This document shows, one piece after another, positions 1 through 59,735 of a stretch of DNA of 63,421 bases. A program made the position numbers and the translations under genes. Below the pieces are notes generated by a model, which saw only the letters and a list, made by a program, of their open reading frames with translations, was not told the origin of the DNA and did no database searches. Source of the stretch: a virus. The DNA lies in the IMG/VR virus record IMGVR_UViG_3300043672_000009, positions 1 through 63,421 of that record; one strand, given 5' to 3'. Positions within the stretch are counted from its first letter, which is position 1. Each line of letters opens with the position of its first letter.

Positions 1-127
1 TCTGGGCTGAAAACCTGCTGGCCGGCCCCGAAACGCTCGATGCCTGTCTGCACCGCCTCTGTGGCACCTTCCGTAACGGCTCCGGCCGCACCCATGGCTC
101 CGGCTTGTCCGAGGCGGGTTCCGAGGC
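1..127. repeat. Terminal overlap: bases 1-127 identical to 63295-63421 (circular closure or terminal redundancy)
   Basis: Base-by-base comparison of the two window ends shows an exact 127/127 match. Confidence 0.95.
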
Positions 128-2702: not shown

Positions 2703-3463
2703 GACTGGTTCCCGTAGGTGATGCGGATCGGCCGGTTCAGGTTCGACCTGGCACGCTCTATCAGCGAGCGTTGATAGTCATTCTGCTCTTGCAGCAGCGC
2801 CTCTTGTTGGGCCTTGCCGTAGGCTTGGACGCCACCTTGAACGGTCTGGCCGATCAGCTTGGCCGTGTTGGGGTTGTTCTCAATGGTCTTTCCCATGCCC
2901 TTGACGCGGTCCCAGAACGACTGCATGTCGTTCGATGTCAGGCCCTGGGCGTAGTCTTGGATCGGCGCCGACACGTTGGTGGGCGCCGACAGCGGGACCG
3001 TGGTGGCGCCCTGCATGCTGCGGGCTTGCGCCGCCTCAATCAGGCCGGGCGACTGGGCGCCGGCCTCCCCCATGGGCATGAACTGCGGCGCTGTGGCCGG
3101 CACGTTGGATGCGACCCCACCAACTGTTTCCGCGGCACCTGCGGCTCCGGCACCGCCCGCCCCAGCAGTCTCTGCGGTGATCTCGTCCACCGCGGCACCG
3201 CCACCAGTGAGGCCGCCTCCTGACGATGCGGCGGTCCCCGCGGCGTTGCTCGCCAGCGTGCCTATCCCACCAGCCAGCGACAAGATACCGCCGATCTTCA
3301 TCAGGTCTTTCTTGCCTGTGAGCGCCCCAACGCCGGTCATGATGGCGCCAGCCACGGTGGCATAGGCAGCGATTGTTCCGAGCACAGTGGTTGCGGTCGC
3401 GACGGCTGCGACACCTGCTGCGCCGGCGGCGAACGATGCAATGATCGGAATTGCGATGGCCAT
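2699..3463 (-). CDS. Membrane-associated internal virion protein (254 aa)
   Basis: The N-terminal ~80 aa are Gly/Ala/Ile-rich hydrophobic segments (MAIAIPIIASFAAGAAGVAAVATATTVLG...), followed by a polar C-terminal domain. Confidence 0.65.
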   Translation of the reverse strand: MAIAIPIIASFAAGAAGVAAVATATTVLGTIAAYATVAGAIMTGVGALTGKKDLMKIGGILSLAGGIGTLASNAAGTAASSGGGLTGGGAAVDEITAETAGAGGAGAAGAAETVGGVASNVPATAPQFMPMGEAGAQSPGLIEAAQARSMQGATTVPLSAPTNVSAPIQDYAQGLTSNDMQSFWDRVKGMGKTIENNPNTAKLIGQTVQGGVQAYGKAQQEALLQEQNDYQRSLIERARSNLNRPIRITYGNQS

Positions 3464-3908: not shown

Positions 3909-4823
3909 TCAATCGCCCCCGCTGTCGCCGCCAGGGTTCCCGTTGTACGGGTCGGGAGGAGGTGCTGGGGCTGCCGGCGGTGCTGGGGCTGCCGGCGGCA
4001 AGTTGAAGTTCAGCAGTTGCGACACGTCAACACCCGTGGTGCTTTGCCAGAACCTGGAGAAGGCACCGAACGAGTCCATTTGGTTCTGGATCAGCGTGCG
4101 CTTTGCGGCCTCGTCAAGGTTCGCATTGTTCTGGATGTTGCCGATGTTCACGCTCATCTGCTGCCACGCCTGCGAGATGTCGCCGTTGGAGCTGATGGCC
4201 GACTGGTTCGCGTTCTGCAGCCCCGCCAGCCGTACTTGATTCTCACGGTCCAGCCCGGCCTGCATGCCTTGAAACTGCTGCGCCGCTGCGAACTGTTGTT
4301 GTTGCTGGGTGCGCTGGGCAGCTTGCTCCGCAAGCGATTGGCCGAACTGCGATGCCTGGTTGGCGATCTGCGTGGCGTTCTGGGCCGAGTTGACCTCGAA
4401 CTGGCTTTGGTTCTGCGCCAGGCTGCGGTCTTGTTGCTGGTTGCTGTTCTCCAGGCCCAGCGCCTGACCGCCCAGCGTAGCCCCGATCTGCGCGTTCGTG
4501 GTCGAGGCGTTGTTGCGGGCGCCCTGGTTCGTGAGTTGCTGCTGCTGGTACAGGCCGGCGTCGGCATTCGCGATGGGCGTGGCGGCCCCGATGACGGCCT
4601 CTTGCGCGGCTTGCGCCGACAGGCTGGAGTTCGTGAGCCCGCGCGCCGCCGCCGCCTGCCGGCCGCGCGTGTCGGCCTGCGTCATCAGCGGCGAGTCCTG
4701 CCGGGTGATCGCATCGACCCGGCCGGCAACGCCCTTCGACTCGTCAAACTCCGCTGTCGTCGGCGTGACCTGGTTCGCCGCCGTCAGGTCCTGGGCTTGC
4801 TCCATCAACGATTTGGTGGCCAT
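3909..4823 (-). CDS. Gln/Asn-rich virion protein (304 aa) with a Pro/Ala-rich C-terminus
   Basis: ORF track. GGAG lies 9 nt upstream of ATG 4823. Extreme Q/N content. An 18-bp x2 tandem at ~3961-3997 encodes PAAPAP repeats. Confidence 0.7.
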   Translation of the reverse strand: MATKSLMEQAQDLTAANQVTPTTAEFDESKGVAGRVDAITRQDSPLMTQADTRGRQAAAARGLTNSSLSAQAAQEAVIGAATPIANADAGLYQQQQLTNQGARNNASTTNAQIGATLGGQALGLENSNQQQDRSLAQNQSQFEVNSAQNATQIANQASQFGQSLAEQAAQRTQQQQQFAAAQQFQGMQAGLDRENQVRLAGLQNANQSAISSNGDISQAWQQMSVNIGNIQNNANLDEAAKRTLIQNQMDSFGAFSRFWQSTTGVDVSQLLNFNLPPAAPAPPAAPAPPPDPYNGNPGGDSGGD

Positions 4824-14919: not shown

Positions 14920-15197
14920 TACAGCGCTCCCTTGAACCATACGCCCAGGTATGCGCGTTGAGAGAGAACGTCATCGGCGTTGTAGTGCTGAAGAATCTCA
15001 AGTCGCCGCACCTCTCGGCCCCGTCCGTACTGATCGATGTGCGCCTTGAGCATTGCGCGCACATGGTCCGTATTCAGCGACGAACATGAGTAGCCGCACG
15101 CACGCGCACTGCGGCGGCAAACAAATACCAACCCGTCTTCGCTGGATTCGTGAACCATTGGTTCTGAGGCGGGTGTCGGCATGGTGGCCACGGTCAC
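14919..15197 (-). CDS. Small protein between terL and portal (92 aa)
   Basis: ORF track. Overlap-coupled at both ends. Confidence 0.5.
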   Translation of the reverse strand: MTVATMPTPASEPMVHESSEDGLVFVCRRSARACGYSCSSLNTDHVRAMLKAHIDQYGRGREVRRLEILQHYNADDVLSQRAYLGVWFKGAL

Positions 15198-16717
15198 ATC
15201 CCCATCTCGTCGTCAACGCTGTAGGCGGCGATCTTGTCCGGCGCCGGCCTGACCGGCTGCGGCTTCGGTGGGATGGCCAGCGTCAGGCCCAGGCTGTCGG
15301 CTTCGTCTGGCGATGGCAGGCCGCGCAGCTTCATATCGTCCTTCGGCTCCATCAGCAGGAGGCCGCCCTTGTAGAAGTAGCGGGTGCCCGTAAGCGCCAC
15401 GCGCAACTCTTGCTCGTTCGGGATGCTGGCGGTCTTCAGCCACTCCAACATCTCGGACCAGATGAAGGCGCGCAGGTTGTAGTGTTTGCCGTTGTCCAGC
15501 CTGATGGAGCTGTTCACGTCCACCACGATGCCCTTTGGGTACCATCCGCGCATGATGTCCGCCACACCCGCGCCGATGCCGATGGTGTCGATGGCAACCT
15601 GTTCTGGCATCTCGCCGAACTTCAGGATTTCCTGCTTCGCCCGTCCTGCGGTCGATGCCACATCCGACTTTCCCCACTTGACCTGACCCAGCAGCACGCG
15701 CCCGCGGCGGAACGACAGCACGCACTTGTCGTTGCCGAAGCGGGCCACGTCCAGCCCTACACGTATGCGTCCGATCGGTCGAACATCAGCCGGGCCGCGC
15801 GACTGCGCCAGCGTCACGATGCCGCTTGAGATGTAGGAGTTCATCACCGAGGCGCTGTAGTCTCTGTCCACCTCCTGGGCCAGGGCCACGGCGGTCATGT
15901 CGCGCTTCTGTTTGGCGTACCAGTCCTTGCCCTTGCGCGGATCGTCGCGCCAGTCGAAGACGAATACCTTGGTGACACCGCCATGCACCTTCGCCCAGAA
16001 CGGATTGCCCTCACCGTTGGGCGTGCTGATGTCGATCTTGACGTTCGAGGTTTGGCTCAGCGCCATGTCAGCGCTCTCGGGGTGGTCCCAGTGGGCGCTT
16101 TCGTCCTTGAAGTAGATCGTTGTCCGCCCGCCGCGTCCGATGTTCCCGCCTGACTCGCCGATGATGGCCGCGCCTTCCATGCGCGGGTCTGGGTTCACGA
16201 TGCGCATGTGGGCCGCGTGCCGCTCTTCGGCGTACCCGGATGGTTTGAACTCGTGCGGCAGCATGCGGATGAAGAAGCGCAGCTTCCAGAATAGGCACTG
16301 CGGGTCATCGGATTTGTCCACCAGGTCCTCTTTGCGGGAGCCGAAGCCGATGACCGAGCCAGGGTGGTAGATCCACATCCAGGCTGCCACGGCCACGCAC
16401 AGCCAGCTCAGGCCCATGTCGCGGCTCTTCTCGACCGCGCCATCCTCGCGCTTCTTCCAGAGCCCGGCCACCCAGTCGATGAACTCTTCCTGCTTCTGGA
16501 ACAGGATGAACGGCATCGTCGTCGGCCGGTTGCTGTTCGCATTGCGCGGGTCGAACGTGCAACCCCAATCGTTGATGAAATCGACTGGGTTGTCTTTGTA
16601 GTGCGCCTGCACGCCAGGCAGCCGCTCCGGGGCCGCGCGCAGGGCCTTGAGCTTGGCCACCCGATCCGCCCACACGGCGTTGTAGTCAGGCGCCAGCCAG
16701 TCGATTTGCACGCTCAT
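15194..16717 (-). CDS. terL: Terminase large subunit (507 aa)
   Basis: ATPase segment VEKSRDMGLSW, plus a C-terminal nuclease-like part (VGLDVARFGNDKCVL, IDTIGIGAGVAD). Confidence 0.9.
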   Translation of the reverse strand: MSVQIDWLAPDYNAVWADRVAKLKALRAAPERLPGVQAHYKDNPVDFINDWGCTFDPRNANSNRPTTMPFILFQKQEEFIDWVAGLWKKREDGAVEKSRDMGLSWLCVAVAAWMWIYHPGSVIGFGSRKEDLVDKSDDPQCLFWKLRFFIRMLPHEFKPSGYAEERHAAHMRIVNPDPRMEGAAIIGESGGNIGRGGRTTIYFKDESAHWDHPESADMALSQTSNVKIDISTPNGEGNPFWAKVHGGVTKVFVFDWRDDPRKGKDWYAKQKRDMTAVALAQEVDRDYSASVMNSYISSGIVTLAQSRGPADVRPIGRIRVGLDVARFGNDKCVLSFRRGRVLLGQVKWGKSDVASTAGRAKQEILKFGEMPEQVAIDTIGIGAGVADIMRGWYPKGIVVDVNSSIRLDNGKHYNLRAFIWSEMLEWLKTASIPNEQELRVALTGTRYFYKGGLLLMEPKDDMKLRGLPSPDEADSLGLTLAIPPKPQPVRPAPDKIAAYSVDDEMGM

Positions 16718-17337
16718 GACGACGCCCTCTGCGAGGCGAGCCAGCGATAGTGTTCGGCTGGCGGCGCGTCGCTATTTGGTGCCGGCTGCTGCGGATCGGC
16801 ACCGGTGTCCTGCCCGTAGCAGATGCGCTCCGAGTGGATGAGCTTGGTCAGGTTGTCGGTCAGCAGGCGCAGCACGTCGGCACGCGCCTTGATGGCGATC
16901 ATGTGGGGCGGTTCTGCTGTGCGCTCCTTCTCCGATCTGGCGCGCAAGTCGGCCATGGTGTTGAAGCACAGGTCTCGCAGCGCCCGGATGTCCGTGCGGT
17001 GTCGCATCAGTACCTGGGTGTTCACCTCGGCCAGGGCCGCCACTACCTCGGCCGTGGCCGGCAGCGCGCTCTCGATCTGCTTGCGGATCTTCTTCGCAAC
17101 GTCGGCGTGCTTGGTCTTGGACACCTCGATCTCGGCCATGTTGGCCTGCGTGGCCACATCGACGGCCCGCTTGAGATCCTTCTGCCAGCCTTCGCGGTTG
17201 GCGATCTTCTGAATGTAGGTGTGGCTGCGCTGGTACTTCGCACCCAGCTCCCGATCAGTGAACGCGCCGGTTCGGTAGTCCCGAGACAGCGCGTCCAGGT
17301 CGAGAGGGGGAAGCCGTGGCTTCTGGTCGCCCATCAC
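16714..17337 (-). CDS. terS: Terminase small subunit (207 aa)
   Basis: N-terminal HTH-like segment (FTDRELGAKYQRSHTYIQKIANREGW). ATGA coupling to terL. Confidence 0.75.
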   Translation of the reverse strand: MMGDQKPRLPPLDLDALSRDYRTGAFTDRELGAKYQRSHTYIQKIANREGWQKDLKRAVDVATQANMAEIEVSKTKHADVAKKIRKQIESALPATAEVVAALAEVNTQVLMRHRTDIRALRDLCFNTMADLRARSEKERTAEPPHMIAIKARADVLRLLTDNLTKLIHSERICYGQDTGADPQQPAPNSDAPPAEHYRWLASQRASS

Positions 17338-17516
17338 AGCGCCCCTGCACCGCGCTTAGTCGCCCGGTACACCCGCATGTATTCGCGCATGTAGCCGGGG
17401 CTGTGGCGGTCCTTGGAGCGGTCCTTGGATCGCTTGGCCGGCCGGTCAGCGGGCTGCGTGGTGTTTACGCTTGCCGTGCCCTGTGTAGCTGGGTTCACGG
17501 TCAGGCGGTTTGCCAT
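17334..17516 (-). CDS. First small ORF of the late operon (60 aa, basic)
   Basis: ATGA overlap with the terS start. A TATGAT element lies 8 nt upstream of its ATG. Confidence 0.5.
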   Translation of the reverse strand: MANRLTVNPATQGTASVNTTQPADRPAKRSKDRSKDRHSPGYMREYMRVYRATKRGAGAL

Positions 17517-17546
17517 GAGCCGGAATCATACAGGTGTTTATGGAGC

Positions 17547-17597
17547 GGTTGCCAGAGGTGTGCTTGGCAACCTGTGGTCTGGCAACCCTTGGCAACT
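17547..17597 (-). promoter_or_regulatory. Cluster A of four [CT]TGGCAACC / GGTTGCCAG motif copies upstream of the late operon
   Basis: GGTTGCCAG 17547-17555, CTTGGCAACC 17563-17572, CTGGCAACCC 17579-17588, TTGGCAACT 17589-17597. Includes the palindrome GGTTGCCA-N10-TGGCAACC. Confidence 0.6.
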
Positions 17598-17611
17598 GGC
17601 TGTTTGCGCGC

Positions 17612-17641
17612 CACCGGGCCGGTGTATGGGCCGGCCCGGTG
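17612..17641 (-). terminator. Perfect 11-bp GC stem-loop (CACCGGGCCGG-N8-CCGGCCCGGTG) between the middle operon and late operon. No clear U tract.
   Basis: Read directly. A second imperfect hairpin is at 17712-17733. Confidence 0.4.
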
Positions 17642-17778
17642 GGTTCTCGTTCGCTGCCCTGCGCCCGTGGTGAGTTGTCTGGGTGCGCCGGCCGGCCCTT
17701 CCAGTAGGTGCGGGTCCCGGGAGAAACGGGCCCTACCTTCCGGCGCGGGCCAATGATGCCATGGTTCCGGCTGGCGGG

Positions 17779-17988
17779 CTACAGCGCCCGAAACTCAGCC
17801 TGGGCCGCATCCAGTTGCGCCTGCAGGTCGGCCATGATGGCCATGCCCACCACCTCTGCACCGGCCGGGCTCAGTTCGATGTCTGGCCACGCCGGGGTGC
17901 ACTCTTCGGGACCGGCGGAGATGACGCCCGCCAGCAGCTTGATGCGCCGGTCCAGCTCGTTGGCGCGGGCCAGGGCCTGCGGGGTCAC
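17779..17988 (-). CDS. Small helical protein (69 aa)
   Basis: ORF track. 4-nt overlap with the upstream gene. Confidence 0.55.
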   Translation of the reverse strand: MTPQALARANELDRRIKLLAGVISAGPEECTPAWPDIELSPAGAEVVGMAIMADLQAQLDAAQAEFRAL

Positions 17989-18488
17989 AGCGCGCCTACC
18001 TTGGCCGGTTTGAGCGCCGCGATGCGCTCATCCAACACGTCGCGCAGTTCGTTCATCAGGGTCTGCTGCCGAATCAAGCGGCGTTGCTCGGCGTACTGGA
18101 TGTCCAGAAACGCCTGCGTGTTGATGAACAGAGTGAGCTTGACGATTCGCTCGCGCAGTTCGTCGCGCTCTGCGATCACGCTCTGTTGGTTCGGCTGCAG
18201 GTTGGGCGTGGGCTGTGTGGTGGGCTCGGTCATGTTCAGGTGCTTTCGCAAGATGTTGAGCGCTTCGGTTTCTGGCAGGCCGGTAAGCCCTATGTCGCAC
18301 TTTGCGCGGAAGAGCCACAGTTCCCTGATTACCGAGGTGGCCCTCGGCCGTACCTCGTGGTCCATGGTGCATTCTTCAAGGTCTCTGAGTGCCTCGCCCA
18401 TCGCCAACTGCAGGCGTGACGCGTGGCGATCAATCTCGCTCCTGCACGTAAGGTCTTTCACCAGGGCCTCCAACTGGTCTTCGGTCAT
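17985..18488 (-). CDS. Hypothetical protein (~167 aa). The C-terminal helical domain resembles the small phage family annotated as crAss001_48-related.
   Basis: ATG 18488 in an ATGA overlap with the upstream stop. C-terminal pattern IAERDELRERIVKLTLFINTQAFLDIQYAEQRRLIRQQTLMNELRDVLDERIA. Confidence 0.6.
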   Translation of the reverse strand: MTEDQLEALVKDLTCRSEIDRHASRLQLAMGEALRDLEECTMDHEVRPRATSVIRELWLFRAKCDIGLTGLPETEALNILRKHLNMTEPTTQPTPNLQPNQQSVIAERDELRERIVKLTLFINTQAFLDIQYAEQRRLIRQQTLMNELRDVLDERIAALKPAKVGAL

Positions 18489-19279
18489 GCCGTCTTGCCT
18501 TTCTGGGCGCGCTTGCGCTCTCGGTCGATGATCCTGATGGCCTCGCGGCGCCGCTCCCGGTGGGCCGCCCGGCGCTCCGAGTTGGTCTTGCCGCGTGGTT
18601 TTGGCTCTGTAACGGCCCCGTTGGTCTCCGATTTCTCGGGGTTTGACCAATTCTCGGCCGATTCCGTAACGGACGCAACCGGATCGGACGGGGCGCCCAG
18701 CAGCGTGAGCATATCGGCCTGCAGGGCGGCCAGTTCGTCGGCCTCTGTCTGGCCCAGGCCGTCGCCTCCCACGCACGCCTTGGCCGTCAGGGTGCGCCAG
18801 CGCGCGATCTGCGCCTCTTGGTCGGCTGTGCGGGGCTGGTGGCGCTCCGGCTGGGGCGTGGCTGGCTCAGTGGCTTCAGCGGGAGCCGTGGGCGCGGCCT
18901 GGCTGGCCTCTTGCTGGATCATCCCGTCGCCCAGGGCTGCCGCAGACTCGCCAGCGGGCGGCGCCTTGCGTGGCCTGCGGGCCTTGCGCTGGGTGGCGGC
19001 TGGTGTTGGCACGGCCAGACCAACCTGCGCATCGGCCCATTCGTAGCCCATCCCGTCGCGCACCGGATGCGCCTTGGCATCGCTGGGCACCAGCACCACA
19101 TCCGCAGCCCCGCAGTGCGGCGCATGCAGCCTGCGGCACGCCTGGCAGCGCGTCAGGGCCACCATGGGCGGGCGGGCGCTTGGCAACCCAGGGCCACCCG
19201 AGAGGTTGCCAGCCAGCGTTAGTGCCTGCTTGCAGCCGATGGCAGCCGAATGGTCGATTCCGCATTTTGTGCACCGCAC
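18485..19279 (-). CDS. Cys-rich (zinc-ribbon-like) protein with a basic C-terminus (~264 aa); candidate regulator
   Basis: GTG 19279 with AAGGAGAG 5-6 nt upstream. CxxC pairs (RCTKCG, RCQACRRLHAPHCG). Arg/Lys-rich tail. Confidence 0.6.
   Translation of the reverse strand: MRCTKCGIDHSAAIGCKQALTLAGNLSGGPGLPSARPPMVALTRCQACRRLHAPHCGAADVVLVPSDAKAHPVRDGMGYEWADAQVGLAVPTPAATQRKARRPRKAPPAGESAAALGDGMIQQEASQAAPTAPAEATEPATPQPERHQPRTADQEAQIARWRTLTAKACVGGDGLGQTEADELAALQADMLTLLGAPSDPVASVTESAENWSNPEKSETNGAVTEPKPRGKTNSERRAAHRERRREAIRIIDRERKRAQKGKTA
19179..19212. promoter_or_regulatory. Everted motif pair CTTGGCAACC-N15-GGTTGCCAG inside the 5' end of the Cys-rich gene
   Basis: Read directly. Confidence 0.5.
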
Positions 19280-19293
19280 TATTTCTCTCCTTT

Positions 19294-19364
19294 GGTTGCC
19301 AGAATGCGCACCATTGTGGTGATTAATGAGGTCTGGCAACCCTCGATTTTTGGCTTTGGCAACC
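19294..19364 (-). promoter_or_regulatory. Cluster B: GGTTGCCAG (19294-19302), CTGGCAACCC (19333-19342), TTTGGCAACC (19355-19364) in the divergent control region
   Basis: Same direct-direct-inverted arrangement (read on the minus strand) as cluster A. The innermost copy abuts the RBS of the 19279 gene. Confidence 0.6.
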
Positions 19365-19469
19365 ATTCTTGACTGTATCCGCTATCTCCGCGCCCCGATA
19401 CCGCTGTCTGGCCGTCAACCATGCCTCTTACCGTTCGTCGGAAAGTGTTGTGCACGTGTGAAATGCATC

Positions 19470-19497
19470 TTGCATCGCTACGTTTCGCACCTATACT
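19470..19497 (+). promoter_or_regulatory. Sigma70-like early promoter TTGCAT-N16-TATACT
   Basis: Read directly. The -10 ends 6 nt before ATG 19504. Confidence 0.45.
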
Positions 19498-19548
19498 ATT
19501 CTCATGCATCCGGCGCTGGGCTGGCTGCGAGACCAGATGGAGAGCGAC

Positions 19549-19761
19549 ATGAACAAGGGCGAGCAGCGCGAAGTGCAGAAGATCCGGGCCTTGGTGTCCG
19601 CTGGCGAAATGGACATGGCCGCTCGCTCGATGGCCCCGCTGCTCAGGGCGGCCTCTGTGCGGAACCGCGATGAGTTGCTTGGCGTGGCCAACGAGCTCAA
19701 GATCCGCAACCACCTGCGCGCCTTGAATGGCACCTACGTGGCGAACGGCGAAGCCTGCTGA
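19549..19761 (+). CDS. Early small protein (70 aa from ATG 19549; 85 aa if leaderless from 19504)
   Basis: GGAGAG lies 4 nt upstream of ATG 19549. The ORF track starts at 19504. Confidence 0.55.
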   Translation: MNKGEQREVQKIRALVSAGEMDMAARSMAPLLRAASVRNRDELLGVANELKIRNHLRALNGTYVANGEAC

Positions 19762-19812
19762 CCACCCCGCGCCCTACGGGGCGCCTCGCAACCACACCAC
19801 GGAGTTCCATCC

Positions 19813-20025
19813 GTGCCGGCCACCATCACCCACGACAGCGACCTGCGCCGCCATCTGATGATCGAGGCCCGCGCCCGTGCAATCGAGCAGGCCGGCCCCC
19901 AGGCGCACACCCAGGCGCCGCGTGAGCCGATCCCGGCGCGCATGCCGCTGCTGCTGCCCAAGCACAGCGTGTTGGAGATCTGGCACACGGCCACCGGCTG
20001 GACCATGCGGAAGGTGGTGTTGTGA
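19813..20025 (+). CDS. Early small protein (70 aa)
   Basis: GTG start with GGAG 9 nt upstream. Confidence 0.5.
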   Translation: MPATITHDSDLRRHLMIEARARAIEQAGPQAHTQAPREPIPARMPLLLPKHSVLEIWHTATGWTMRKVVL

Positions 20026-20252
20026 GCGTCCGCACGGTGGTTGTTTTCCCCAACTCAGTTGGGGCAATCAGCGGGGTGTCGTACGTTGAGATAGGCATGC
20101 GGCACGACGGGCACAAGGGCGTGCGTCTGCTTCGCTCCGCGTTCAAGGATTCAGAATTGCAGGACGAAAACGGGCTGGCGTGGCGCGCGGCCGAACTGAT
20201 GGCGCAGTCGCTGCGGCTGCCCGCAATCAACGCAACCGCCCCTCGGGGCTAA
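20022..20252 (+). CDS. Early small protein (76 aa)
   Basis: GTGA overlap coupling with the previous ORF. Confidence 0.5.
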   Translation: MSVRTVVVFPNSVGAISGVSYVEIGMRHDGHKGVRLLRSAFKDSELQDENGLAWRAAELMAQSLRLPAINATAPRG

Positions 20253-20262
20253 GGAGATAAGC

Positions 20263-20475
20263 ATGGAAGGCTTCACCGAAGTCACGTGGGAGCAGTTTTT
20301 TGCCGCTGTCGGTCCGCGCGACGTGCACCCCCGCGCTGAGCGCGAGCGAAGTCTGTGGATGGATGTCAAGACACACGATGTGATCGGCATCACGACACCC
20401 GGCTACGCCAACGGCTGGACGCCGTCCGGCAAAGCGCCGGACGTCTACATGCTCCGCGCCAGCCTGCTCGTTTGA
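20263..20475 (+). CDS. Early small protein (70 aa)
   Basis: ORF track. AAGGAG lies upstream at ~20251. Confidence 0.55.
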   Translation: MEGFTEVTWEQFFAAVGPRDVHPRAERERSLWMDVKTHDVIGITTPGYANGWTPSGKAPDVYMLRASLLV

Positions 20476-20557
20476 ATCCAGCGGCATCCCTGGGTGGGAT
20501 GCCAGTGCAGTCGCACACCGCGCCCGGCGGCCACCGGGCAGACATTGGAGCATCACT

Positions 20558-26173: not shown

Positions 26174-26623
26174 CTATACCAAGCTGGCCTGTGGTGCCGT
26201 GCGTTCGATCTTCGTCACCCGCACCACAAGCCGCTCTCCGTGTTCATCAGGTTCCATCAGGTAGCCGAAGATCCGACGCACCCACTTGTCATCCACGATG
26301 ACCACGCCCTTGATGGCGTCGAGCATCACCTTCATGGCGTTGTCCAGGTCGATGCATTGCACGGTGTCGTCCCAGTCGGTCCCGAAGTCGCGCATGCGCT
26401 TCTTCCAGTCCAGTGGGCGGTGCGGTTAAAGCATGTACTCGACCTTCACGCGACCCTCAATGGGTGCCGTGATGCCGGCCGCTTTGGCGATGGCCTGGAC
26501 AGTCTTCTTGTACTCCTTTGCCTCCTTCGTCGGCACGATGGTGATGTGGCCGCCGATTGGTACGGGGCGCCAGTATTTGTTACTCGACAGGACCGGCAGT
26601 TGCAGCACGACGGGATCGCTCAT
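26174..26623 (-). pseudogene. rusA: RusA-type Holliday junction resolvase interrupted by one in-frame TAA (26426-26428)
   Basis: ORFs 26426-26623 and 26174-26395 are in the same frame. Joined reading: ...RVKVEYML*PHRPLDWKKRMRDFGTDWDDTVQCIDLDNAMKVMLDAIKGVVIVDDKWV (RusA D-x-DN ... DD signature). Confidence 0.75.
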
Positions 26624-28062
26624 AGGTCATCGTCGGCGTAGTTGTAGCCGGCGCTCGTGGGTTTGCTGGTGGACACCTTGGACTTTGGTGAAACGTCCAC
26701 CTGGCTCGGCTCCCACCGTTGCGTCTTGGGGTGGAATTCCATCGCGAAACGCACCTGATTCTCACCGTCTCTGTTCTTCGCGACACAGCACCCGACAACC
26801 CGGTATCCCGGGCACCTGAAGTGGTTCCACAAAAAGATGATGATGTCGCTGCTTTGCTCCAACGAACCACTGTCTCGCAGATCACGCATTGTGGGCTCTG
26901 GTGACGATCTGTTCTCCACCTCGCGGTTGAGCTGCGACAGCACCAGGAACGCAACACCCATGCGTTTCGCGATGGTCTTGAGGCCCTGTATGATTTTTCC
27001 GATCTCTCGGTCTCGCGTCTCGCCCTTGATGCCATCCCCGGCGCACTCCTGGATGAAGTCCAGTATGAGCAGCTTTGGTCCCTCACGCCGCTTGGATCCG
27101 ACTTTGCCTTGTATGGCGGCCAGCGTGAGGGCCGGCTCATCGTCGATGAATATCGGTAGTTGCCGCACACGTTCTGCCGACTCGCTCATGATCGACCATT
27201 CCAGGTCGTTGAGCTGGCCCGTCTTCAGCTTCGTGAGTTCGATACCGCTGTCTGCCGCCACGAGCCGGAGCATGCACTGCATCTTCGGCATTTCCTGCGA
27301 CAGAATTACCACCGGGCGGCCCGCGCGCGCAAAGGCCGTTGCGATCGCGTTCGCCTTGGACGATTTCCCGACTGATGGACGGGCCGCCAGCGCAATGACC
27401 TCGCCTGGCCTGAATCCACCATCCAGCACGCGATCAAGTTCCGGCACACCGGTAGACCATGCTGGAACCTGCGTGCCGTCGGCAAGCTCGTTCATGCGAT
27501 CCAACAGCGGCACCATCAGATCGCCGACGTGCTCAGGAACACCGCGAACACTGTGCTCCTGCAGGTTGGCGAACATCGCGGCCACGCGGTCCAGCTTCTC
27601 GGCCACGTCGCCCTCGTCGTCGAACCCTACGCTGCAAGCCTCGTCGCCCGCCGCAACAATCTGCCTCCGAATGGACCTCTCGCGCACCACCTCCGCGTAG
27701 CGCCTGATGTTTGCGGCGTTGGGGACGGCCTGGGCGAGTGAATTGACGTACGGCAGCCCGCCAGCGTCATCAGCCTTATTCGTGGCCGTGAGGGCCTCGA
27801 ATACCGTGTATGAATCGATGGGTTTGTTGGCCGCCGACAGCGCGCAGATGGCGTCGAAAATCAGCTTGTGCTCATACCGGTAGAAGTCTCGATCGTTCAG
27901 CAGATCGGCAACGCGGTCCAACGAGTCCGGGAGCAGCAGCAGGGCGCCTAGAACGTTTTGCTCGGCTTCCAGCGAGTGGGGCGGAACGCGCAGCCGTGAA
28001 ACTTCGTTGTCGCGCGGATCCGATGCGCCACCCGACAGGGTGGGCGAACTCTTCCGGCTCAT
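26620..28062 (-). CDS. dnaB: Replicative DNA helicase DnaB (480 aa)
   Basis: PPHSLEAEQNVLGALLL N-terminal motif. Walker A is ARPSVGKSS. DFIQ and other RecA-fold motifs are present. Confidence 0.92.
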   Translation of the reverse strand: MSRKSSPTLSGGASDPRDNEVSRLRVPPHSLEAEQNVLGALLLLPDSLDRVADLLNDRDFYRYEHKLIFDAICALSAANKPIDSYTVFEALTATNKADDAGGLPYVNSLAQAVPNAANIRRYAEVVRERSIRRQIVAAGDEACSVGFDDEGDVAEKLDRVAAMFANLQEHSVRGVPEHVGDLMVPLLDRMNELADGTQVPAWSTGVPELDRVLDGGFRPGEVIALAARPSVGKSSKANAIATAFARAGRPVVILSQEMPKMQCMLRLVAADSGIELTKLKTGQLNDLEWSIMSESAERVRQLPIFIDDEPALTLAAIQGKVGSKRREGPKLLILDFIQECAGDGIKGETRDREIGKIIQGLKTIAKRMGVAFLVLSQLNREVENRSSPEPTMRDLRDSGSLEQSSDIIIFLWNHFRCPGYRVVGCCVAKNRDGENQVRFAMEFHPKTQRWEPSQVDVSPKSKVSTSKPTSAGYNYADDDL

Positions 28063-51217: not shown

Positions 51218-53359
51218 CTAGTTTGCTGTAGTTACGTCGGCGCCGATCTGGATCCACAGAATTCCAGAGCCATAACTCTTGTCATGGGCGAATGTTCTTG
51301 TAATAGTGAACCCGTTTGCTGGTTGCGTTGTTGATGCAGCCTTAATCTGTGCACCCCATGTCAGCGCACCAAGGGCACCGCCCGTTGGGTTCCTGATCTT
51401 CACAACTACCTCAATGCCATCAATTGGCAATGACGGCTCATTGACAATAAATGCCGTCGCGTTATTCGGGACGATATTAAACTTCCTGCCAAGTGCCGTA
51501 TTCGGAGTCATGCTTGCCGAGTACGTCACAGTAACCCATGGATCGCCACCCTTGTCATATCCACTATATCTGGACGCTACCGACGTTTTGACGTTGATAT
51601 AGCGGTTGAACGGCTCGGCGGCGTCGTTTATAGGCGTCGTTGCGTCAGTGTATAACCCACCGATAATGGTATTATGAATGACACTGGAGTCATTCATGTC
51701 CAGGAATTGCGCGTGCACTCCAATGATGGTGTTGTACTCGCTTGACGAGAAAAACTGCAGCTTCCCCCCAAGGCCTCCGTTACCGTTGCCTTTGATGACC
51801 CCGTTTGAGCATGAGCCAAACTTCATCGCTGCCCCCTCAAAATAGGGGCCTTCTAGTGTGTATCCGTCGCAATTAGACAGGAACACCGAAGGGTTGGCTG
51901 TGCTTGTTGATAAGTCCTCCGATTGCAATAGCCCGCCAAATATGCGAATCCCAAAGTTCGGGCCTGTTGCGTCACAACGGATGCCACAGGCGCCAGCCTT
52001 GTATCCTGTGCTTGACAGCATGTCGGGATCATAAATGCTTATGTCATGGCAGAATCCACCGGTCATGTACACGTGGTGATCAATGTCGGTTGCAGTAACT
52101 ACCGGCGGAATAGTAACCGCATTGTCGTTATTGTCTGGCCATGACTTGCAATCATGAATAACGCCGCTGTTGGTATTTTTTAGCTTGATGCCAGTGCCGG
52201 CCATCATTGTGACAACGCGCTCAATCCTCCAGCGGATTGTATTGTTTGTCGTGCCGTCAACCAGGATACCATTGTTGGGGTGTGACGAATTACCGGTAAG
52301 TAGCATATCCCGGATCGTCCACTGCGACCGACCAGAACAATCAAACGTAGGCTTATTGGCTGAGCACCCGTTTATCAGTTGTGTAGCTTGTTCGTCACCG
52401 AATATCACCAGGGCTTTTGCAAGCACGGACCCAGCGGGACCCGGTGTAAGTGATTCTGTCACCAAGTATGCCCCGGCCGGTATATACGCTTTTCCCCTAT
52501 AAGCCCCAGTTCCGCAGCACAGAATTGCATTCTGTATTGCCGTCGTCATGTTTGTAGTGCCTGGGATAGTGTTTGTGCCGTATCTAAGTGCATTACCTGG
52601 TGGATACCAGTAATTAGTAGGCGTTACGCCGGCAGCCGCCTCTACAGCAGTTCTTGCGTACACGTTATTCAAGAACAGACCGAGACCAAACGTATAAACC
52701 GCGCTCGGGATATAGGCCAGCAGGTTGACGGCATTGCTCGCGCTGGTGGTGTCGGCCAAGATATCCGTGAGCAACGTGAGCCTGGCGAGCGCAACGCTCC
52801 CAGACGACAGGTTCGATGCATTCAGCGTCGTGAGGCTGGCGCCAGAGCCGCTGAATGTGGCCGCTGTGACGCCACCCGTTACGGACAAACTACCGAGTAC
52901 CCCCAAGCTCGTGAGAGACGAAGCCGTGACGCCGGGCGCCAACGTAGCCCCGGTCAGCGTTCCGGCCGCAGCCGTGACAGTGATGTCCGCTGACCCGCTG
53001 AACGGCACGCCGTTGATGTTCCTGGGGGTCTGGAGCGTGGTGGCCGTGGAGGCGTTTCCCGTCACGTTGCCGGTGACCGTGCCAGTGAGGTTCCCGGTGA
53101 TGCCGCCGCTAGCGGACAGGGTGGTAAACGCGCCCGTGCTGGGTGTCGTGGCACCGATAGGTATGTCGTCGATGGTTCCGATGGGCTCCAGGCCATTCGC
53201 GCCCGCATTGATCCGGATGAGCTTCAGTGCGTTCCCGGAGAGCGTTGGCAGTTTGTCGAATCCGGCCTCGATGGCCACGATCTCCGCCCGGATCGGCGAC
53301 GATGCGCCTGGGGCATGAGAACTCGGCGTGCCCGACTTGGTGAAGTATGGGTTGGTCAT
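51218..53359 (-). CDS. Tailspike B with a right-handed beta-helix/pectate-lyase-like body (713 aa)
   Basis: The N-terminus is shared with fibre A (MTNPYFTKSGTP...SSPIRAEIVAIEAGFDKLP). Beta-helix-type repeats. The body (51218 to ~52720) is visibly GC-poor. Confidence 0.85.
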   Translation of the reverse strand: MTNPYFTKSGTPSSHAPGASSPIRAEIVAIEAGFDKLPTLSGNALKLIRINAGANGLEPIGTIDDIPIGATTPSTGAFTTLSASGGITGNLTGTVTGNVTGNASTATTLQTPRNINGVPFSGSADITVTAAAGTLTGATLAPGVTASSLTSLGVLGSLSVTGGVTAATFSGSGASLTTLNASNLSSGSVALARLTLLTDILADTTSASNAVNLLAYIPSAVYTFGLGLFLNNVYARTAVEAAAGVTPTNYWYPPGNALRYGTNTIPGTTNMTTAIQNAILCCGTGAYRGKAYIPAGAYLVTESLTPGPAGSVLAKALVIFGDEQATQLINGCSANKPTFDCSGRSQWTIRDMLLTGNSSHPNNGILVDGTTNNTIRWRIERVVTMMAGTGIKLKNTNSGVIHDCKSWPDNNDNAVTIPPVVTATDIDHHVYMTGGFCHDISIYDPDMLSSTGYKAGACGIRCDATGPNFGIRIFGGLLQSEDLSTSTANPSVFLSNCDGYTLEGPYFEGAAMKFGSCSNGVIKGNGNGGLGGKLQFFSSSEYNTIIGVHAQFLDMNDSSVIHNTIIGGLYTDATTPINDAAEPFNRYINVKTSVASRYSGYDKGGDPWVTVTYSASMTPNTALGRKFNIVPNNATAFIVNEPSLPIDGIEVVVKIRNPTGGALGALTWGAQIKAASTTQPANGFTITRTFAHDKSYGSGILWIQIGADVTTAN

Positions 53360-56300
53360 TGCATCTGCTCCCGCACTCTCTCGCGCATCTCACGAGGTGC
53401 CGACTTGATGGTGCGCTCTTGGCGCGTCGCCCGCATCTCGCGGACCCGTTGGATGACTTGGCGCATGGTGATCCGCATCGGGGTGTCCTGGTTCTTGGCG
53501 TTCCAGTCCGCCAGATCTCGCTGCGCTTCCTTGACCTTGGCCTGGTCGCCGTCATTGAGACCCTCAGCCCACTTGCCGGCGATCTCTCCCTCAACGTTCT
53601 TTACCAGTTGGATGCTGCGCTGCACCTCCTGCATCCGGCTGGATTCGCGCGCCACCTCCGCAGGCTGGAAGCCGATGAACTTCATGGCCGCGTCCACGGG
53701 GCCGGTGTCCAGCACCTTCTGTTCCCGCTGGTTGCGGTACTCGCCGGTGTTCCACATCTGCATGGCCTTGGCCATGTTCTGGATCGCCGTGGGCGCCATC
53801 TTCAACCCGGCCTCGGCCACGTCACCAGCCAACAGTTTGGTGCCGGCGTCGATGGCGTTCTTGGCCAAGCCGCCGGCCGCACCCGCGAACTCCAGCACGT
53901 CTTTGCTCCGGTCGGTGTTGCTGCGCAGAAGGGCGCCGGTGCCCGGCAGCAGGTTGCCCATGCTCAGACGTAGGCTCATGTCGATGGGGAAGCCTGGCAG
54001 GCTGGTGAGGCCCCGCGTGGCCACGTCCGCGGCGATGTTGCCCAGGCCCAGGGTGTCGGCCACGAACTTGCGCTTTGCCGCCTTGCTGCTGAAGTCGTAG
54101 CCCAGCGCCTGCGCCAAGGTGTCGATGGCGTCGTCCAGGTCATCCGCGAACGGCAGGCCACCGGCGCCCGCCACCAGCACCAGCACCGCCAGGGCGATAC
54201 CGACCGCGCGCTTGCCCTGTGGCCCGCTGCGCCACATCCGCGCCAGGAACTCCAGATAGTGGATGCTGAACTGCTTGAACGTCATGGCGGTGGCGCCGAT
54301 CGGTCCACGCGCCCAGTTGCCGCGATTTCCTCGGTTGTACAACCCTTGCGTCTCGATCACCGCCTTCTCTGCGAACCCGAACGGGTCCGGGTTGTGCGTT
54401 TCCTTGGCGACGTTGTAGGCGGCCACGAAGGTGACGCGCCGATTGAACTGCTCGCTCAGGCTGAACAGGCTACCCCAGATGAACGCCGCCTTCTTCAGCA
54501 CCGGGTGGTTGCCCAGGTTCTTCATCGCTTCGGCTTGCAGGTGGTGGATTTCCTGCGGGCTCACGATGCCGTCGTCTTCGGCGCGCTTCATGGCCTTGCC
54601 GATCTCGCCCGTTGGCGCACCCGCTGCCACCGTTCGCGCGGCCGCCATCAGGTGTTGGGTCGCCTTGGCGAGGCCGCCGAACTGCGACAGGTAGGGCAGC
54701 GTTATCGTGATCGGCTGCGTCAGGTTGGTGGCCGCGCTGGCCACGCTACCGCCGATGAACTGGGTGAACAGCAGCCCGCGGAAGCCGGCTGCTTCTTCCT
54801 GGGGATCCTGGACGTACTGCACCAGCTTCAAGGCGTCGTCTTTCAGGTCGCCCTGCTCTTTCGGTACCTCGTCCGCCCACTTCTTCGCGCGACCCAGGTT
54901 GAGGTTTCCGCTGGCCATGCGGGCATTGCTGGTGACGAAGCTCGCCAGCACGCGCGAGGTGTCCTCGCTGAACCCGGAGATGCCCTGGCGATGGATCATG
55001 CGCTTCATGGCGCTGCGGTTGTTCTTCGTCAGCCGCAGGAAGTCCTGGTAGACCTCGTTGTTTGCGTTGCCGGTGGTCTGGGCGAACAGCTCCAGCGCAT
55101 CCAGCGGCAGCCCGGCATACAGCTTATAGGCTTCCTGGCTCATCAGTCCGCGTTTGAAGTCGGCGCCATTGAACTCCGGTTCGGCCTGCATCTCGCGCGC
55201 CGCCTTGTTGGCCTCTCGGCGTGATTCGTACATGCCGAAGAACTCGGTTTCGCCGGCGCGCGTGATGTGCAGGGTGTGGCGCCCGAAGCGCATCAACGGG
55301 GCATATCCCTCTGCCTTCAGCCGGTCCACCTGCGTGGACTTGTCGGCGATGGCCTCATAGGTCTTGTCGAGGCTCACCTTGCGATCGGGCTTCGCGGCGG
55401 CAAGCGTGTTGAAGTGCTGGTTGATGATGGAGGCGGCATCGGCCAGGTCTGCGGCGGCCAGGACCTGCGCGGCCACGGCATCCCCGTCACCACCCGCAAG
55501 CCGCACCATTTCGCTTTTTGCCAGGTCGGTGAGCGACTGGTCTACCGCAGCCCGGAACTCGTTGTACAGGCCGATCTGGGCGCCGCTGAACCCCATCCTG
55601 CGAAGTTCCGGCTCCGTGAACACCACACCCGCCCGCAGGAACTCGCGCTCGAACTTGTCGTTCACCATCTTCTCGAAGCGGTCCAGCGGCTGGCCCTGCC
55701 ACATCTTCAGAACCTGGCCGGTGAGGCGATTGCCGCGCACCAGCAACTGCGCCTTGGCCTGCGGTGTCAGCTTGTCGGCGGCGGCCTTCACATCGTCGAT
55801 CTTCACCAGCTTGTGGCCGGCATCGCGCGCCCACGACAGCGTGCCCTGGAACACGGCGGACCCGGCCGCCTTCAGGTCTGCGGCCGTCGCCTCGCCGTGA
55901 CGGAACAGGCCACCCTTCTTCAGGTCCAACCAGCTCTCCAGCTTCGGCAGGATCGTCGGCGCCATGTCGGCGGCGGCATTGCCGAAGATGTTGATGTCCT
56001 TGATGTAGTCCTGCACGGCATCGAAGACGCGGCCGAACGTCAGCGGGTGGTTCTGGGCCTTGGCGTACTGGGTGCCGATGGACCGGCCCCAGAACCCGAG
56101 CTTGCCGGCGTTGCTGGTGATGTCGAGGAAGAGGTTGCGGGCTGCGGTCTGGTTGAAGCCGCGGATGCCTTCGCGCATGGTGTCGGCGACGCTGCGGCGG
56201 ATGTCCTTCGATTCGGCCTGTTCTGGCACGCTGCGAGCCGGCGCAGTGGGCCCGTTCGTGATGAACTCGCGCGCCGGCACCAGGATGTTTGCCACGATGT

Positions 56301-57087
56301 CGGCATCGGTGAGTGCGACCTTAATGCCGATGGCGCGCAGGAACTGCTTCACGGCGGCGATGGCCCGCTGCACCAACGTTGCCTCGGGCGTGCGCTCTGC
56401 CATCTCGGCCAGGATCTCTTCAGCCACCGTCAGCCGGTCTTCGGTCTTGGCCAGGTCCATGCCGTACTGCGTCGCCTTGGCCCGCATGCGTTCGTCGTTC
56501 GCCTTCGCCACCTCATCCAGGATCGGCAGCAGCTTGCGCCCGAACAGCCCGCGCAGCCCGGCGTGCCCGATGGTCTCGTGGAACAGCACCCGCACCACCT
56601 GGCCATCGGTTTTGAGTTGGTCGGCCACCAGGTAGACCTTGCCGCCCTCCCAGTAGCCCTGCGTCGCCCCGTCTGCGCCCTGCGCCTTGGCATCCCGGTC
56701 AACCTTCTTCGCGGCTTCTGACGCATCGGCCATCGACCCAAGCACAACCACCTCCGGCGCATTGGCCCAGCCGCTGGTGACGGCATCAACCACGGTCTGC
56801 ACATCGTAGCTCGACATGCCGGCGGACGGTTCAGCGCGTTGCATCACCACCGGTGCGGGCGCAGGCGGTGGCGTGAACACATCAGCGTGCTGGGCGCGCA
56901 GCAGCGCAATCACCTCGCCCCGCTCGCCGTTGACTTGCTCCAGAAGATCATCCACCGCCGCACGCTCGGCGGCCTTGGTGGCCATGCCTGCCTTGACGTA
57001 GGACTCGATGCCATCGGTGAGTGCCCCCAAGTCCTGGGTGCCCAGGGTCTTGATGGCCCGGAGGCAGAAGCTCATTCGCACTGTCAT
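53356..57087 (-). CDS. Large ejection/internal-virion protein (1243 aa), PLxRFG-type, with an HExxH metallopeptidase-like motif and C-terminal membrane segments
   Basis: HETIGH at 56563-56580. PLMRFG at 55282-55299. Hydrophobic VGIALAVLVLVAGAGGLPF near the C-terminal third. Confidence 0.8.
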   Translation of the reverse strand: MTVRMSFCLRAIKTLGTQDLGALTDGIESYVKAGMATKAAERAAVDDLLEQVNGERGEVIALLRAQHADVFTPPPAPAPVVMQRAEPSAGMSSYDVQTVVDAVTSGWANAPEVVVLGSMADASEAAKKVDRDAKAQGADGATQGYWEGGKVYLVADQLKTDGQVVRVLFHETIGHAGLRGLFGRKLLPILDEVAKANDERMRAKATQYGMDLAKTEDRLTVAEEILAEMAERTPEATLVQRAIAAVKQFLRAIGIKVALTDADIVANILVPAREFITNGPTAPARSVPEQAESKDIRRSVADTMREGIRGFNQTAARNLFLDITSNAGKLGFWGRSIGTQYAKAQNHPLTFGRVFDAVQDYIKDINIFGNAAADMAPTILPKLESWLDLKKGGLFRHGEATAADLKAAGSAVFQGTLSWARDAGHKLVKIDDVKAAADKLTPQAKAQLLVRGNRLTGQVLKMWQGQPLDRFEKMVNDKFEREFLRAGVVFTEPELRRMGFSGAQIGLYNEFRAAVDQSLTDLAKSEMVRLAGGDGDAVAAQVLAAADLADAASIINQHFNTLAAAKPDRKVSLDKTYEAIADKSTQVDRLKAEGYAPLMRFGRHTLHITRAGETEFFGMYESRREANKAAREMQAEPEFNGADFKRGLMSQEAYKLYAGLPLDALELFAQTTGNANNEVYQDFLRLTKNNRSAMKRMIHRQGISGFSEDTSRVLASFVTSNARMASGNLNLGRAKKWADEVPKEQGDLKDDALKLVQYVQDPQEEAAGFRGLLFTQFIGGSVASAATNLTQPITITLPYLSQFGGLAKATQHLMAAARTVAAGAPTGEIGKAMKRAEDDGIVSPQEIHHLQAEAMKNLGNHPVLKKAAFIWGSLFSLSEQFNRRVTFVAAYNVAKETHNPDPFGFAEKAVIETQGLYNRGNRGNWARGPIGATAMTFKQFSIHYLEFLARMWRSGPQGKRAVGIALAVLVLVAGAGGLPFADDLDDAIDTLAQALGYDFSSKAAKRKFVADTLGLGNIAADVATRGLTSLPGFPIDMSLRLSMGNLLPGTGALLRSNTDRSKDVLEFAGAAGGLAKNAIDAGTKLLAGDVAEAGLKMAPTAIQNMAKAMQMWNTGEYRNQREQKVLDTGPVDAAMKFIGFQPAEVARESSRMQEVQRSIQLVKNVEGEIAGKWAEGLNDGDQAKVKEAQRDLADWNAKNQDTPMRITMRQVIQRVREMRATRQERTIKSAPREMRERVREQMQ

Positions 57088-57749: not shown

Positions 57750-57752
57750 GCG

Positions 57753-58007
57753 CTACCCGCCGAACAGCAGAACGTCACTCGTCGAGAACGACTCCGGCGC
57801 GTACTTGGCGGCCAGGTGCACAACCAGACCCTGCTTGAGCCGCCACAGCAGCGTGGACTCGTTGCTGTAGTTCGATGGGGTGACGGTGGCGCTGTCGCTG
57901 CGCTTGTCGCCCGTCATGAACACGTAGTCGATGCGGTACTGCACTGGAGACGCGTCGGTCTCGCGGCTTGCACAACGGATGGTGGCGTAGACCTTCACAG
58001 AGAGCAC
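57753..58007 (-). CDS. Small virion-module protein (84 aa)
   Basis: ORF track. Confidence 0.5.
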   Translation of the reverse strand: MLSVKVYATIRCASRETDASPVQYRIDYVFMTGDKRSDSATVTPSNYSNESTLLWRLKQGLVVHLAAKYAPESFSTSDVLLFGG

Positions 58008-58267: not shown

Positions 58268-58270
58268 GGA

Positions 58271-59734: not shown

Positions 59735-59735
59735 T

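Follow-up and report, generated by a model that had tools for sequence, protein, structure and literature searches.

Which protein reads the short motifs clustered in front of the late genes of an uncultured phage, and what do these motifs do? They are found in the viral genome record IMGVR_UViG_3300043672_000009 of IMG/VR (positions 1 to 63,421; this whole 63,421-nt stretch is referred to below as the window), where copies of the heptamer GTTGCCA crowd a 262-bp non-coding gap (17517-17778) within a long minus-strand gene block. A first-pass annotation, based on the nucleotide sequence, had interpreted them as the site of a dedicated phage regulator that controls late transcription by activation, or by antitermination through adjacent hairpins. 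Our analysis upholds the idea of a dedicated phage site for a DNA-binding protein and changes the identity of the proposed reader: the comparative evidence points to the phage's own small terminase subunit, TerS, and to packaging recognition rather than control of late transcription as the primary role. We assign a probability of about 0.7 to the reading in which the GTTGCCA heptamers are bound by the helix-turn-helix (HTH) domain of this TerS, and the cluster in the gap, here called array A, is the packaging recognition site, of pac or cosB type.

Array A (17547-17597, minus strand) comprises three direct GTTGCCA copies starting at 17596, 17586 and 17571, which read aGTTGCCAAg (17596-17590), GGTTGCCAGa (17587-17580) and GGTTGCCAAg (17572-17565), and one inverted TGGCAAC (17554-17548). 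Ten nucleotides separate the third direct copy from the inverted one, cTGGCAACC (17554-17547), giving the arrangement GGTTGCCA-N10-TGGCAACC; both this pair and the four copies within 51 bp had been described correctly in the first pass. The longer form GGTTGCCA occurs 11 times in the window against 3.4 expected, a count reached in none of 100 shuffles, and 8 of the 11 copies fall in array A and in two further arrays, B and C, described below. The 7-mer as such is not enriched overall (18 copies versus 12.6 expected); its clustering lies beyond all simulations, with up to 4 heptamers per 60 bp (never more than 2 in 1000 first-order Markov simulations) and up to 9 per 1.9 kb (never more than 5 in the same simulations). 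Nine single, isolated 7-mer copies are scattered elsewhere in the window, including those at 5189 and 31120, which correspond to the lone matches previously noticed near 5186 and 31106.

Close phage relatives were not found by megablast of the 16.5-20.5 kb region against 50,697 phage records, and related contigs were reached through homologues of TerS and of a Cys-rich protein encoded upstream of the gap. The most useful of these (L008, L011, L132, L133, L219 and L223) all keep arrays. In the window, L008, L011, L219 and L223, the array A heptamers are invariant against spacers of varying sequence. The heptamers are intact and keep their offsets even in L223, whose TerS is 52% identical to that of the window, and in L219, whose TerS is 48% identical and whose large terminase subunit, TerL, belongs to a different family. 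Searching viral_contigs with terS or terL gave no useful relatives, L002 and L003 lacking the motif and being organised differently upstream, and a scan of metagenome_contigs with TerS gave no matches. We conclude that the motif cluster is real and functional, and that the heptamer repeats, judged by their sequence, are a dedicated protein-binding array of the phage.

To relate the motif to a protein, a viral-contig collection was scanned for the bare DNA pattern GGTTGCCA-N5-25-TGGCAACC, and the open reading frames (ORFs) of the window were compared with the loci returned. The scan yielded 120 loci, 21 of them with at least three heptamers in 90 bp, and TerS was the only window protein that recurred beside clustered motifs. 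In at least eight of the 21 (L015, L020, L048, L052, L061, L077, L098 and L107), two or three exact direct GTTGCCA copies and one inverted copy lie inside a terS homologue, the product of which is 25-30% identical to the window TerS; the internal cluster occupies the segment coding for the linker just after the N-terminal HTH. In a comparison set of 94 TerS homologues (80 from prophage loci of genome_contigs, 5 from phage records, 6 from viral contigs, and those of the window contig and two close relatives), about 75 have three exact direct repeats at matching codons, spaced by 15/12 bp or, in some classes, by 12/13 bp, and an inverted copy often follows ~16 bp beyond them. Array A resembles these internal arrays in its geometry: its heptamers stand at offsets 0/10/25/42, compared with 0/15/27/43 inside terS of distant homologues, so that the span from the first direct to the inverted copy is equal (42-43 bp) and the pattern of orientations is the same.

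The internal repeats behave as a feature of the DNA. In 19 genes of the GTTGCCA class, from hosts that include Providencia and Lysobacter, the six Val and Ala codons of the repeats are GTT and GCC in 18-19 of 18-19 genes, as against a share of only 39-63% for the commonest codon at other conserved Ala positions. Such frozen synonymous sites argue that the repeats are maintained as DNA and not as protein sequence. Other heptamers are found at exactly the same codons in Salmonella phage SEN34 (GTACGCA), Pseudomonas phage USP_25 (GTATCCA) and Enterobacter phage ENT1 (GTAACCA), and in these other classes all three repeats are altered together (VA, VS, VR, VT, VN).

The heptamer co-varies with the recognition helix of TerS. 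The heptamers fall into eight classes, and each recognition-helix sequence is paired with only one of them: SHTAIQK and THQAISK with GTTGCCA, SHTAINK and THTAIGK with GTTTCCA, THGAINK with GTATCCA, SEGAIRK with GTACGCA, SHVAIAK and SHVAIGK with GTTACCA, SHVAIHK with GTTAACA, NHATILK with GTAACCA, and SDTA(I/V)RK with GTTCGCA. These classes do not follow overall similarity: helix and heptamer may both differ between TerS proteins of 81-87% identity, and within the GTTGCCA class identity goes down to 42%. The window fits the pairing despite its external array, with the helix SHTYIQK (17206-17226, in the N-terminal HTH) and the heptamer GTTGCCA upstream.

The window protein in question (16714-17337, minus strand) is identified by sequence comparison as the small terminase subunit. 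It matches PHROG 1206 (E = 1.5e-20), is linked by jackhmmer to the annotated TerS proteins of phages SEN34, USP_25 and Orisa03, and is a small protein whose gene lies directly upstream of terL, its stop overlapping the terL start. TerL itself (15194-16717, minus strand) matches PHROG 5989 and, by tblastn, annotated TerL genes. In an AlphaFold2 model of TerS, the HTH is made of three helices and leads into a long helical hairpin; the top BFVD hit of the model is a TerS (E = 4e-4). An HTH of this type occurs in no other ORF of the window. The C-terminal tail of TerS changes together with the type of TerL.

In the window TerS gene, the linker-coding segment EVSKTKHADVAKKIRKQIES (17068-17127) has lost its internal repeats, leaving one degenerate copy, GTTGCGA. 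Alignment shows this linker to be homologous to the VAK repeats of relatives that are 41-46% identical in TerS and keep internal arrays; in one of these, L220, the internal array consists of GGTTGCCA four times and an inverted copy. We therefore read EVSKTKHADVAKKIRKQIES as the decayed remnant of an internal repeat array. A second, independent case of displacement is seen in L177, where three GTACGCA copies and an inverted one (1925-1975) occupy the extreme 5' end of a 156-amino-acid ORF, ~1 kb before terS; the TerS encoded there has the helix TEGAIRK and a linker of its own without repeats. Array A precedes terS by 180 bp and heads the module of packaging and structural genes; in homologues the corresponding repeats are inside terS. 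It contains several short repeats of defined orientation and spacing that are conserved as DNA rather than as protein, and its sequence matches the recognition helix of the cognate TerS, as does that of the displaced array in L177. On this comparative evidence, the most satisfactory reading of array A is that of a TerS recognition site displaced from within terS to its present upstream position.

Sites of this kind, pac and cosB, are already known. The cosB site of phage lambda has three TerS sites, one of them inverted, just upstream of the Nu1 gene, with paired helix/site specificity classes, and phage N15 has an accessory inverted site inside terS (PMC4669245). Array A and lambda cosB (R3, R2, R1, bound by the winged HTH of gpNu1, with variants in phages 21 and N15) share several short repeats, one of them inverted, just upstream of terS, and in both families recognition helix and site sequence change together. 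Unlike the lambda system, the window TerS has no Nu1 similarity detectable by inspection, and no search tool linked the two; the window sites are 7-8 bp long at 10-15-bp spacing, whereas the R sites of lambda measure 16 bp and are arranged about an IHF bend; neither cosN nor cosQ was identified in the window; and the ancestral position of the array in the window TerS family is inside the gene.

In Bacillus phage SPP1, pac overlaps the late promoters PL1 and PL2, the ribosome-binding site and the 5' end of gene 1, and the terminase, besides initiating packaging, represses its own synthesis (PMC6316719, citing Chai et al. 1997). The SPP1 site (pacL, pacC and pacR, bound by G1P) and the window share TerS boxes repeated on both sides of a gene start and an overlap with late promoters, ribosome-binding site and 5' coding region, the promoter of the window being a probable one; the TerS family and the box sequences are different, the window arrays are at two loci 1.7 kb apart, one of which heads a different operon, and repression by TerS is here proposed by analogy. 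P22-like and other headful phages have pac inside terS, and the proposed recognition site of most members of the window TerS family likewise lies there. The portal of L220, one of the relatives with internal repeats, is of the P22 type, a hint that this branch of the family packages by the headful mechanism. The pac site of P22 is a single asymmetric site of ~22 bp, unlike the triple heptamer repeat described here, which in the window is moreover outside the gene. The sites of lambda Q (QBE), P2 Ogr and Mu C resemble the window in having a short motif beside a weak promoter or, in the window, a promoter-like element, where the late operon begins; they differ in that the window hairpins precede the promoter-like element and the motif tracks TerS instead of a transcription factor, and family searches of the window proteins found no homologues of these three regulators.

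The end of array A that faces the late genes adjoins an invariant, promoter-like block. This 35-bp block, CCTGTATGATTCCGGCTCATGGCAAACCGCCTGAC (17500-17534, minus strand), comprises the hexamer TATGAT (17530-17525), 8 nt, the ATG at 17516 and the first codons of a 60-amino-acid ORF, and is 100% identical in the window, L008, L011, L219 and L223; across these genomes TerS is only 48-52% identical and the 60-amino-acid proteins 61%. The block stands at a fixed distance of 12 nt from the inverted heptamer, and the sequence of that spacer varies. The near-leaderless layout pointed out in the first pass is thus present and conserved in relatives: no Shine-Dalgarno sequence lies between TATGAT and the ATG, and the ORF appears to be leaderless. 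TATGAT matches the -10 consensus at 5 of 6 positions, the -35 region is poor, and the inverted heptamer of array A occupies the position expected for a -35 element. In L222, the equivalent segment has a different sequence and the same layout, TTGCAT-N17-TACATT-N7-ATG. The block is probably a promoter with a leaderless start; alternatively, it could be part of the region cleaved by terminase. A second copy of CTGTATGATT is found at 26986 on the plus strand, inside dnaB, where the similarity extends no further, and we judge it to be a chance occurrence.

Two structured elements precede array A in the direction of transcription. The GC-rich hairpin (17611-17642, minus strand) has a 12-bp stem and an 8-nt loop, which slightly extends the perfect 11-bp hairpin originally placed at 17612-17641 and bears out the absence of a U tract: the transcribed strand has none, and a T-rich tail is found only on the plus strand, in the non-transcribed orientation. 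The hairpin consequently falls outside the definition of a classical intrinsic (Rho-independent) terminator. Its stem base is kept in L008, where the inner part is replaced, and in L011 a C-to-U change preserves pairing as G-U. In L219, a tRNA-Gly gene (4576-4653) is inserted between the structured segment and the GC hairpin on the strand of the flanking operons, whereas the window has no tRNA gene at all; its orientation and its position just upstream of the hairpin suggest that the gap is transcribed from upstream, with the hairpin ending the transcript. The GC hairpin is probably a terminator or an insulator between the upstream operon and array A. Farther upstream is a conserved structured segment (17660-17752, minus strand), in which ~80 nt do not vary between the window, L008 and L011. 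The imperfect hairpin recognized earlier at 17712-17733 is the tip of this longer predicted structure, and its stem shows a compensatory C-G to A-T change in L219. The folding z-score of the 262-bp gap is -2.4. Rfam gave no match at the gathering score in the whole window, and none at E <= 1 in 17300-19700.

The motif also recurs upstream of the neighbouring operon. Array B (19294-19364, minus strand) consists of direct GGTTGCCA copies at 19364-19357 and 19341-19334, separated by the invariant A-tract CAAAAATCG, and an inverted TGGCAACC at 19301-19294, just ahead of the translation start signals of the gene for the Cys-rich protein, a Shine-Dalgarno sequence and a GTG codon. The first-pass annotation had described the same arrangement here as in array A: the motif cluster is there, while the layout is similar rather than identical, given only two direct and one inverted copy at wider spacings (23 and ~39 bp). 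Array B is conserved in L008, L011, L132, L133 and L219, adjoining a variable stretch. The previously missed array C (19181-19211, minus strand), with an inverted copy at 19211-19204 and a direct copy at 19188-19181, is inside the linker-coding part of the same gene. Among relatives its heptamer is kept and its copy number, orientation and reading frame differ; conservation of the heptamers across frame shifts argues for selection at the DNA level.

The gene whose start lies between arrays B and C is the first of the upstream operon and encodes the Cys-rich protein of 264 amino acids (18485-19279, minus strand). This protein has two C-X2-C-X3-H-X3-5-C (CCHC) zinc knuckles, a variable, acidic middle with a ~55-amino-acid insertion in the window copy, and a strongly basic, conserved C-terminus (TN.ER.AA.R.R...IDRERKRAQKG). 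Family searches matched it to no family, DNA-binding ones included. An HNH endonuclease was considered and rejected, as the conserved residues are those of the two CCHC knuckles and there is no Pfam hit. The gene is present in every relative that has arrays B and C, and neither the gene nor these arrays were found in L222 and L220; tblastn was negative for the gene at these two and at four prophage loci, the only loci checked. It is followed by the gene for a 167-amino-acid protein (17985-18488, minus strand), situated between the zinc-knuckle gene and the terminase module, in which an N-terminal extension of ~100 amino acids precedes a C-terminal Sequestin (PF21825) domain. Sequestin is an anti-Thoeris family of 3'cADPR sponges (bioRxiv 10.1101/2025.07.12.664507), which makes early expression of the upstream operon probable, and the zinc-knuckle/Sequestin operon is presumed to be early. 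Arrays B and C are the least explained part of the system. We infer a role for them in repression by TerS or as accessory packaging sites; they may otherwise belong to a larger packaging complex or be bound by the zinc-knuckle protein.

These elements can be combined into a working model. TerS would bind array A as oligomers, on its three direct heptamers and the inverted one, and would then recruit TerL, which would cut nearby and begin filling the capsid. In the window lineage, the internal terS array would have decayed, with the functional array now in the non-coding gap upstream. The position of the inverted heptamer, at -35 of the TATGAT element in array A and abutting the Shine-Dalgarno sequence in array B, would suit repression: TerS accumulated late in infection would bind arrays B and C and switch off the zinc-knuckle/Sequestin operon, and TerS at array A would repress the late promoter in a form of autoregulation. 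With these promoters repressed and the GC hairpin in place, transcription would no longer pass through the packaging complex. By analogy with SPP1, such a regulatory side-role of TerS at the promoters overlapped by its sites is plausible. In its fullest form, the model includes a heptamer 'packaging code', in which a few recognition-helix residues specify the heptamer that each phage carries three times in its own terS, an array moved out of its gene and multiplied, and TerS as a late repressor linking early shut-off to packaging; this version is speculative and less likely than not. Physical binding by TerS, cleavage at or near array A, any effect on transcription and the choice between pac and cos are what we infer from the comparisons.

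Several observations weigh against TerS as the reader of the heptamers, or against parts of the model. Neither Foldseek with the TerS model nor phmmer against PDB sequences gave a significant match in PDB. In the internal arrays, the recognition helix is ~70-110 bp from the repeats (~170 bp from the terS start), and such closeness means that their co-variation may partly reflect co-inheritance as a cassette; helix and array are separated only in the window lineage and in L177. The terS linkers of L217, L153 and L197 (~3160-3230) carry an inverted copy of a different class from the direct ones, for example direct GTTTCCA or GTTAACA with inverted TGGCAAC, and the inverted copy in such mixed arrays may be constrained partly by the protein sequence (LATE). 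Most members of the TerS family have one array and the window lineage has three; arrays B and C are not predicted by the packaging model and occur only together with the Cys-knuckle gene. As to regulation, a scan with the sigma-70 consensus found no full promoter in 17000-20500, and so in neither gap, which leaves the regulatory part of the model resting on the -10-like hexamer and the geometry.

How do other explanations compare? If the heptamers were operators of a dedicated transcription factor, such as the CCHC zinc-knuckle protein, autoregulation would be expected at arrays B and C and late activation or antitermination at array A. The arrays do occupy the only two sizeable non-coding gaps found in the leftward block, each before the first gene of a group; the inverted heptamer of array A falls at -35 of a good -10-like hexamer with a weak -35, as is typical of activator-dependent promoters; arrays B and C have been seen only in genomes encoding the zinc-knuckle protein; and zinc-finger late activators exist in P2-like phages (Ogr/Delta). 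Yet the same heptamer, with three direct copies and one inverted, recurs inside terS of many phages, where its sequence goes with that of the TerS recognition helix, so that a second protein evolving the same specificity would be needed. Nearly all of the other TerS homologues examined have arrays of this kind, in loci where no zinc-knuckle gene was seen; tblastn was negative for it at six loci with the same or variant arrays, the only ones checked. The zinc-knuckle protein has no DNA-binding family hit, and the inverted heptamer of array B is in a repressor-like and not an activator-like position. Antitermination of the lambda Q type, which calls for a terminator downstream of the promoter, does not fit: both hairpins are upstream of array A and of the -10-like element, and the ATG comes 8 nt after the latter. 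We consider a dedicated regulator, and with it activation or antitermination as the primary role, unlikely. About equally doubtful is the possibility that TerS does read the sites and that they are mainly regulatory here, with the true recognition or cleavage site elsewhere, for example in 17500-17534 or in the B/C region. The presence of three arrays instead of one, all at promoter or 5'-gene positions, speaks for it, as do the invariant 35-bp block at fixed spacing beside array A and the likeness of the B/C region to SPP1 pacL/pacR around a gene start, the SPP1 terminase being self-repressing. But array A repeats the geometry of internal arrays that stand in mid-coding sequence with no promoter context, which makes packaging recognition the shared function.

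Two further explanations are much less probable than a regulatory one. One is that an initiator or a ParB-like protein binds the repeats, as replication-origin iterons or as a partition site. In keeping with this, relatives encode an HTH_ParB protein elsewhere in their genomes, and unrelated contigs have GTTGCCA-type clusters beside primase/helicase-like genes. Such a reading is very improbable for the window, where replication genes such as dnaB (26620-28062) are 7-10 kb away, the arrays always accompany terS, and no AT-rich unwinding element adjoins array A. The clusters in question are those of L031 (2967-3015), L038 (7417-7770), L054 (991-1105) and L130 (8448-8790), along with five direct copies at 11-bp spacing in L112 (5122-5270); they may represent the origin iterons of other elements with a heptamer like this one. 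Chance clustering, or a non-functional relic of a duplicated terS fragment, can be practically dismissed: array A does resemble the terS linker segment of relatives, but simulations never approach the clustering, the heptamers are invariant against diverged spacers in five genomes, and those of array C survive shifts of reading frame.

Three familiar promoter or operator motifs were also considered for the repeats and rejected. The TGGCA of a sigma-54 promoter is present, but no TTGC is found at the -12 spacing in either array. The direct heptamers could supply TTGCCA as a sigma-70 -35 box, and none of the copies has a -10 at 16-18 bp, in agreement with the negative scan. The lambda CII-like pattern TTGC-N6-TTGC is matched by copies 1 and 2 of array A and not by array B, and was taken as coincidence.

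We found no description in the literature of a heptamer/helix code or of a GGTTGCCA pac site. Judged by the literature that could be searched, the family-wide code inside terS and the relocated, triplicated arrays of the window lineage seem to be new. If the TerS reading is right, array A marks the start of DNA packaging in an uncultured 63-kb phage, and the packaging specificity of a widespread proteobacterial TerS family could be read from sequence alone as helix-heptamer pairs. This would help to predict pac sites as well as host-genome hot spots of transduction (pseudo-pac sites), to predict which satellites or prophages can hijack which helper phage, and to engineer packaging-specific phagemids, and it would guard against labelling such arrays as transcriptional operators. 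The relocated and triplicated arrays would also make it possible to examine, in a system other than SPP1, whether terminase regulates transcription.

The genomic setting is as follows. Window positions 1-127 are identical to 63295-63421 (127 nt), which makes the window a 63,294-bp assembly that is circular or circularly permuted; the phage genome is 63.3 kb with 64% GC. On the circle, the minus-strand late block running from 17516 to 1 continues from 63294 to 51218, ~30 kb in total, which makes the '30-kb late operon' of the first pass correct once circularity is taken into account. Its first gene is the 60-amino-acid ORF (17334-17516, minus strand; motif HSPGYMREYMRVYR), which overlaps the terS start by ATGA. 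Versions of 60-66 amino acids with the motif HSPGYMR.YMR..R are found in the window, L008, L011, L219, L222 and L223, and searches matched it to no protein family; in L220 the position is taken by a 59-amino-acid gene with no tblastn similarity to the window ORF. TerL is followed, in the direction of transcription, by the portal gene and then by the remaining structural genes. On the other side of the gap, the last gene before it, after that for the 167-amino-acid protein, encodes a 69-amino-acid protein (17779-17988, minus strand).

Upstream of the Cys-rich gene lies a divergent intergenic region (19280-19503), beyond which plus-strand genes, presumably early, start at 19504. A promoter-like element, TTGCAT-N16-TATACT (19470-19497, plus strand), in this region points away from the arrays, toward the small plus-strand genes; the segment that holds it (GAATAGTATAGGTG...) is conserved in all relatives. 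At the far end of the late block, 51218-63389 on the minus strand encodes large virion-associated proteins, among them one of 1243 amino acids (53356-57087) and one of 838 amino acids (60873-63389). Both match segments of giant phage protein families of 3,400-4,650 amino acids, one of them annotated 'DarB-like antirestriction', and a giant virion-associated protein appears to be split into several ORFs in the window.

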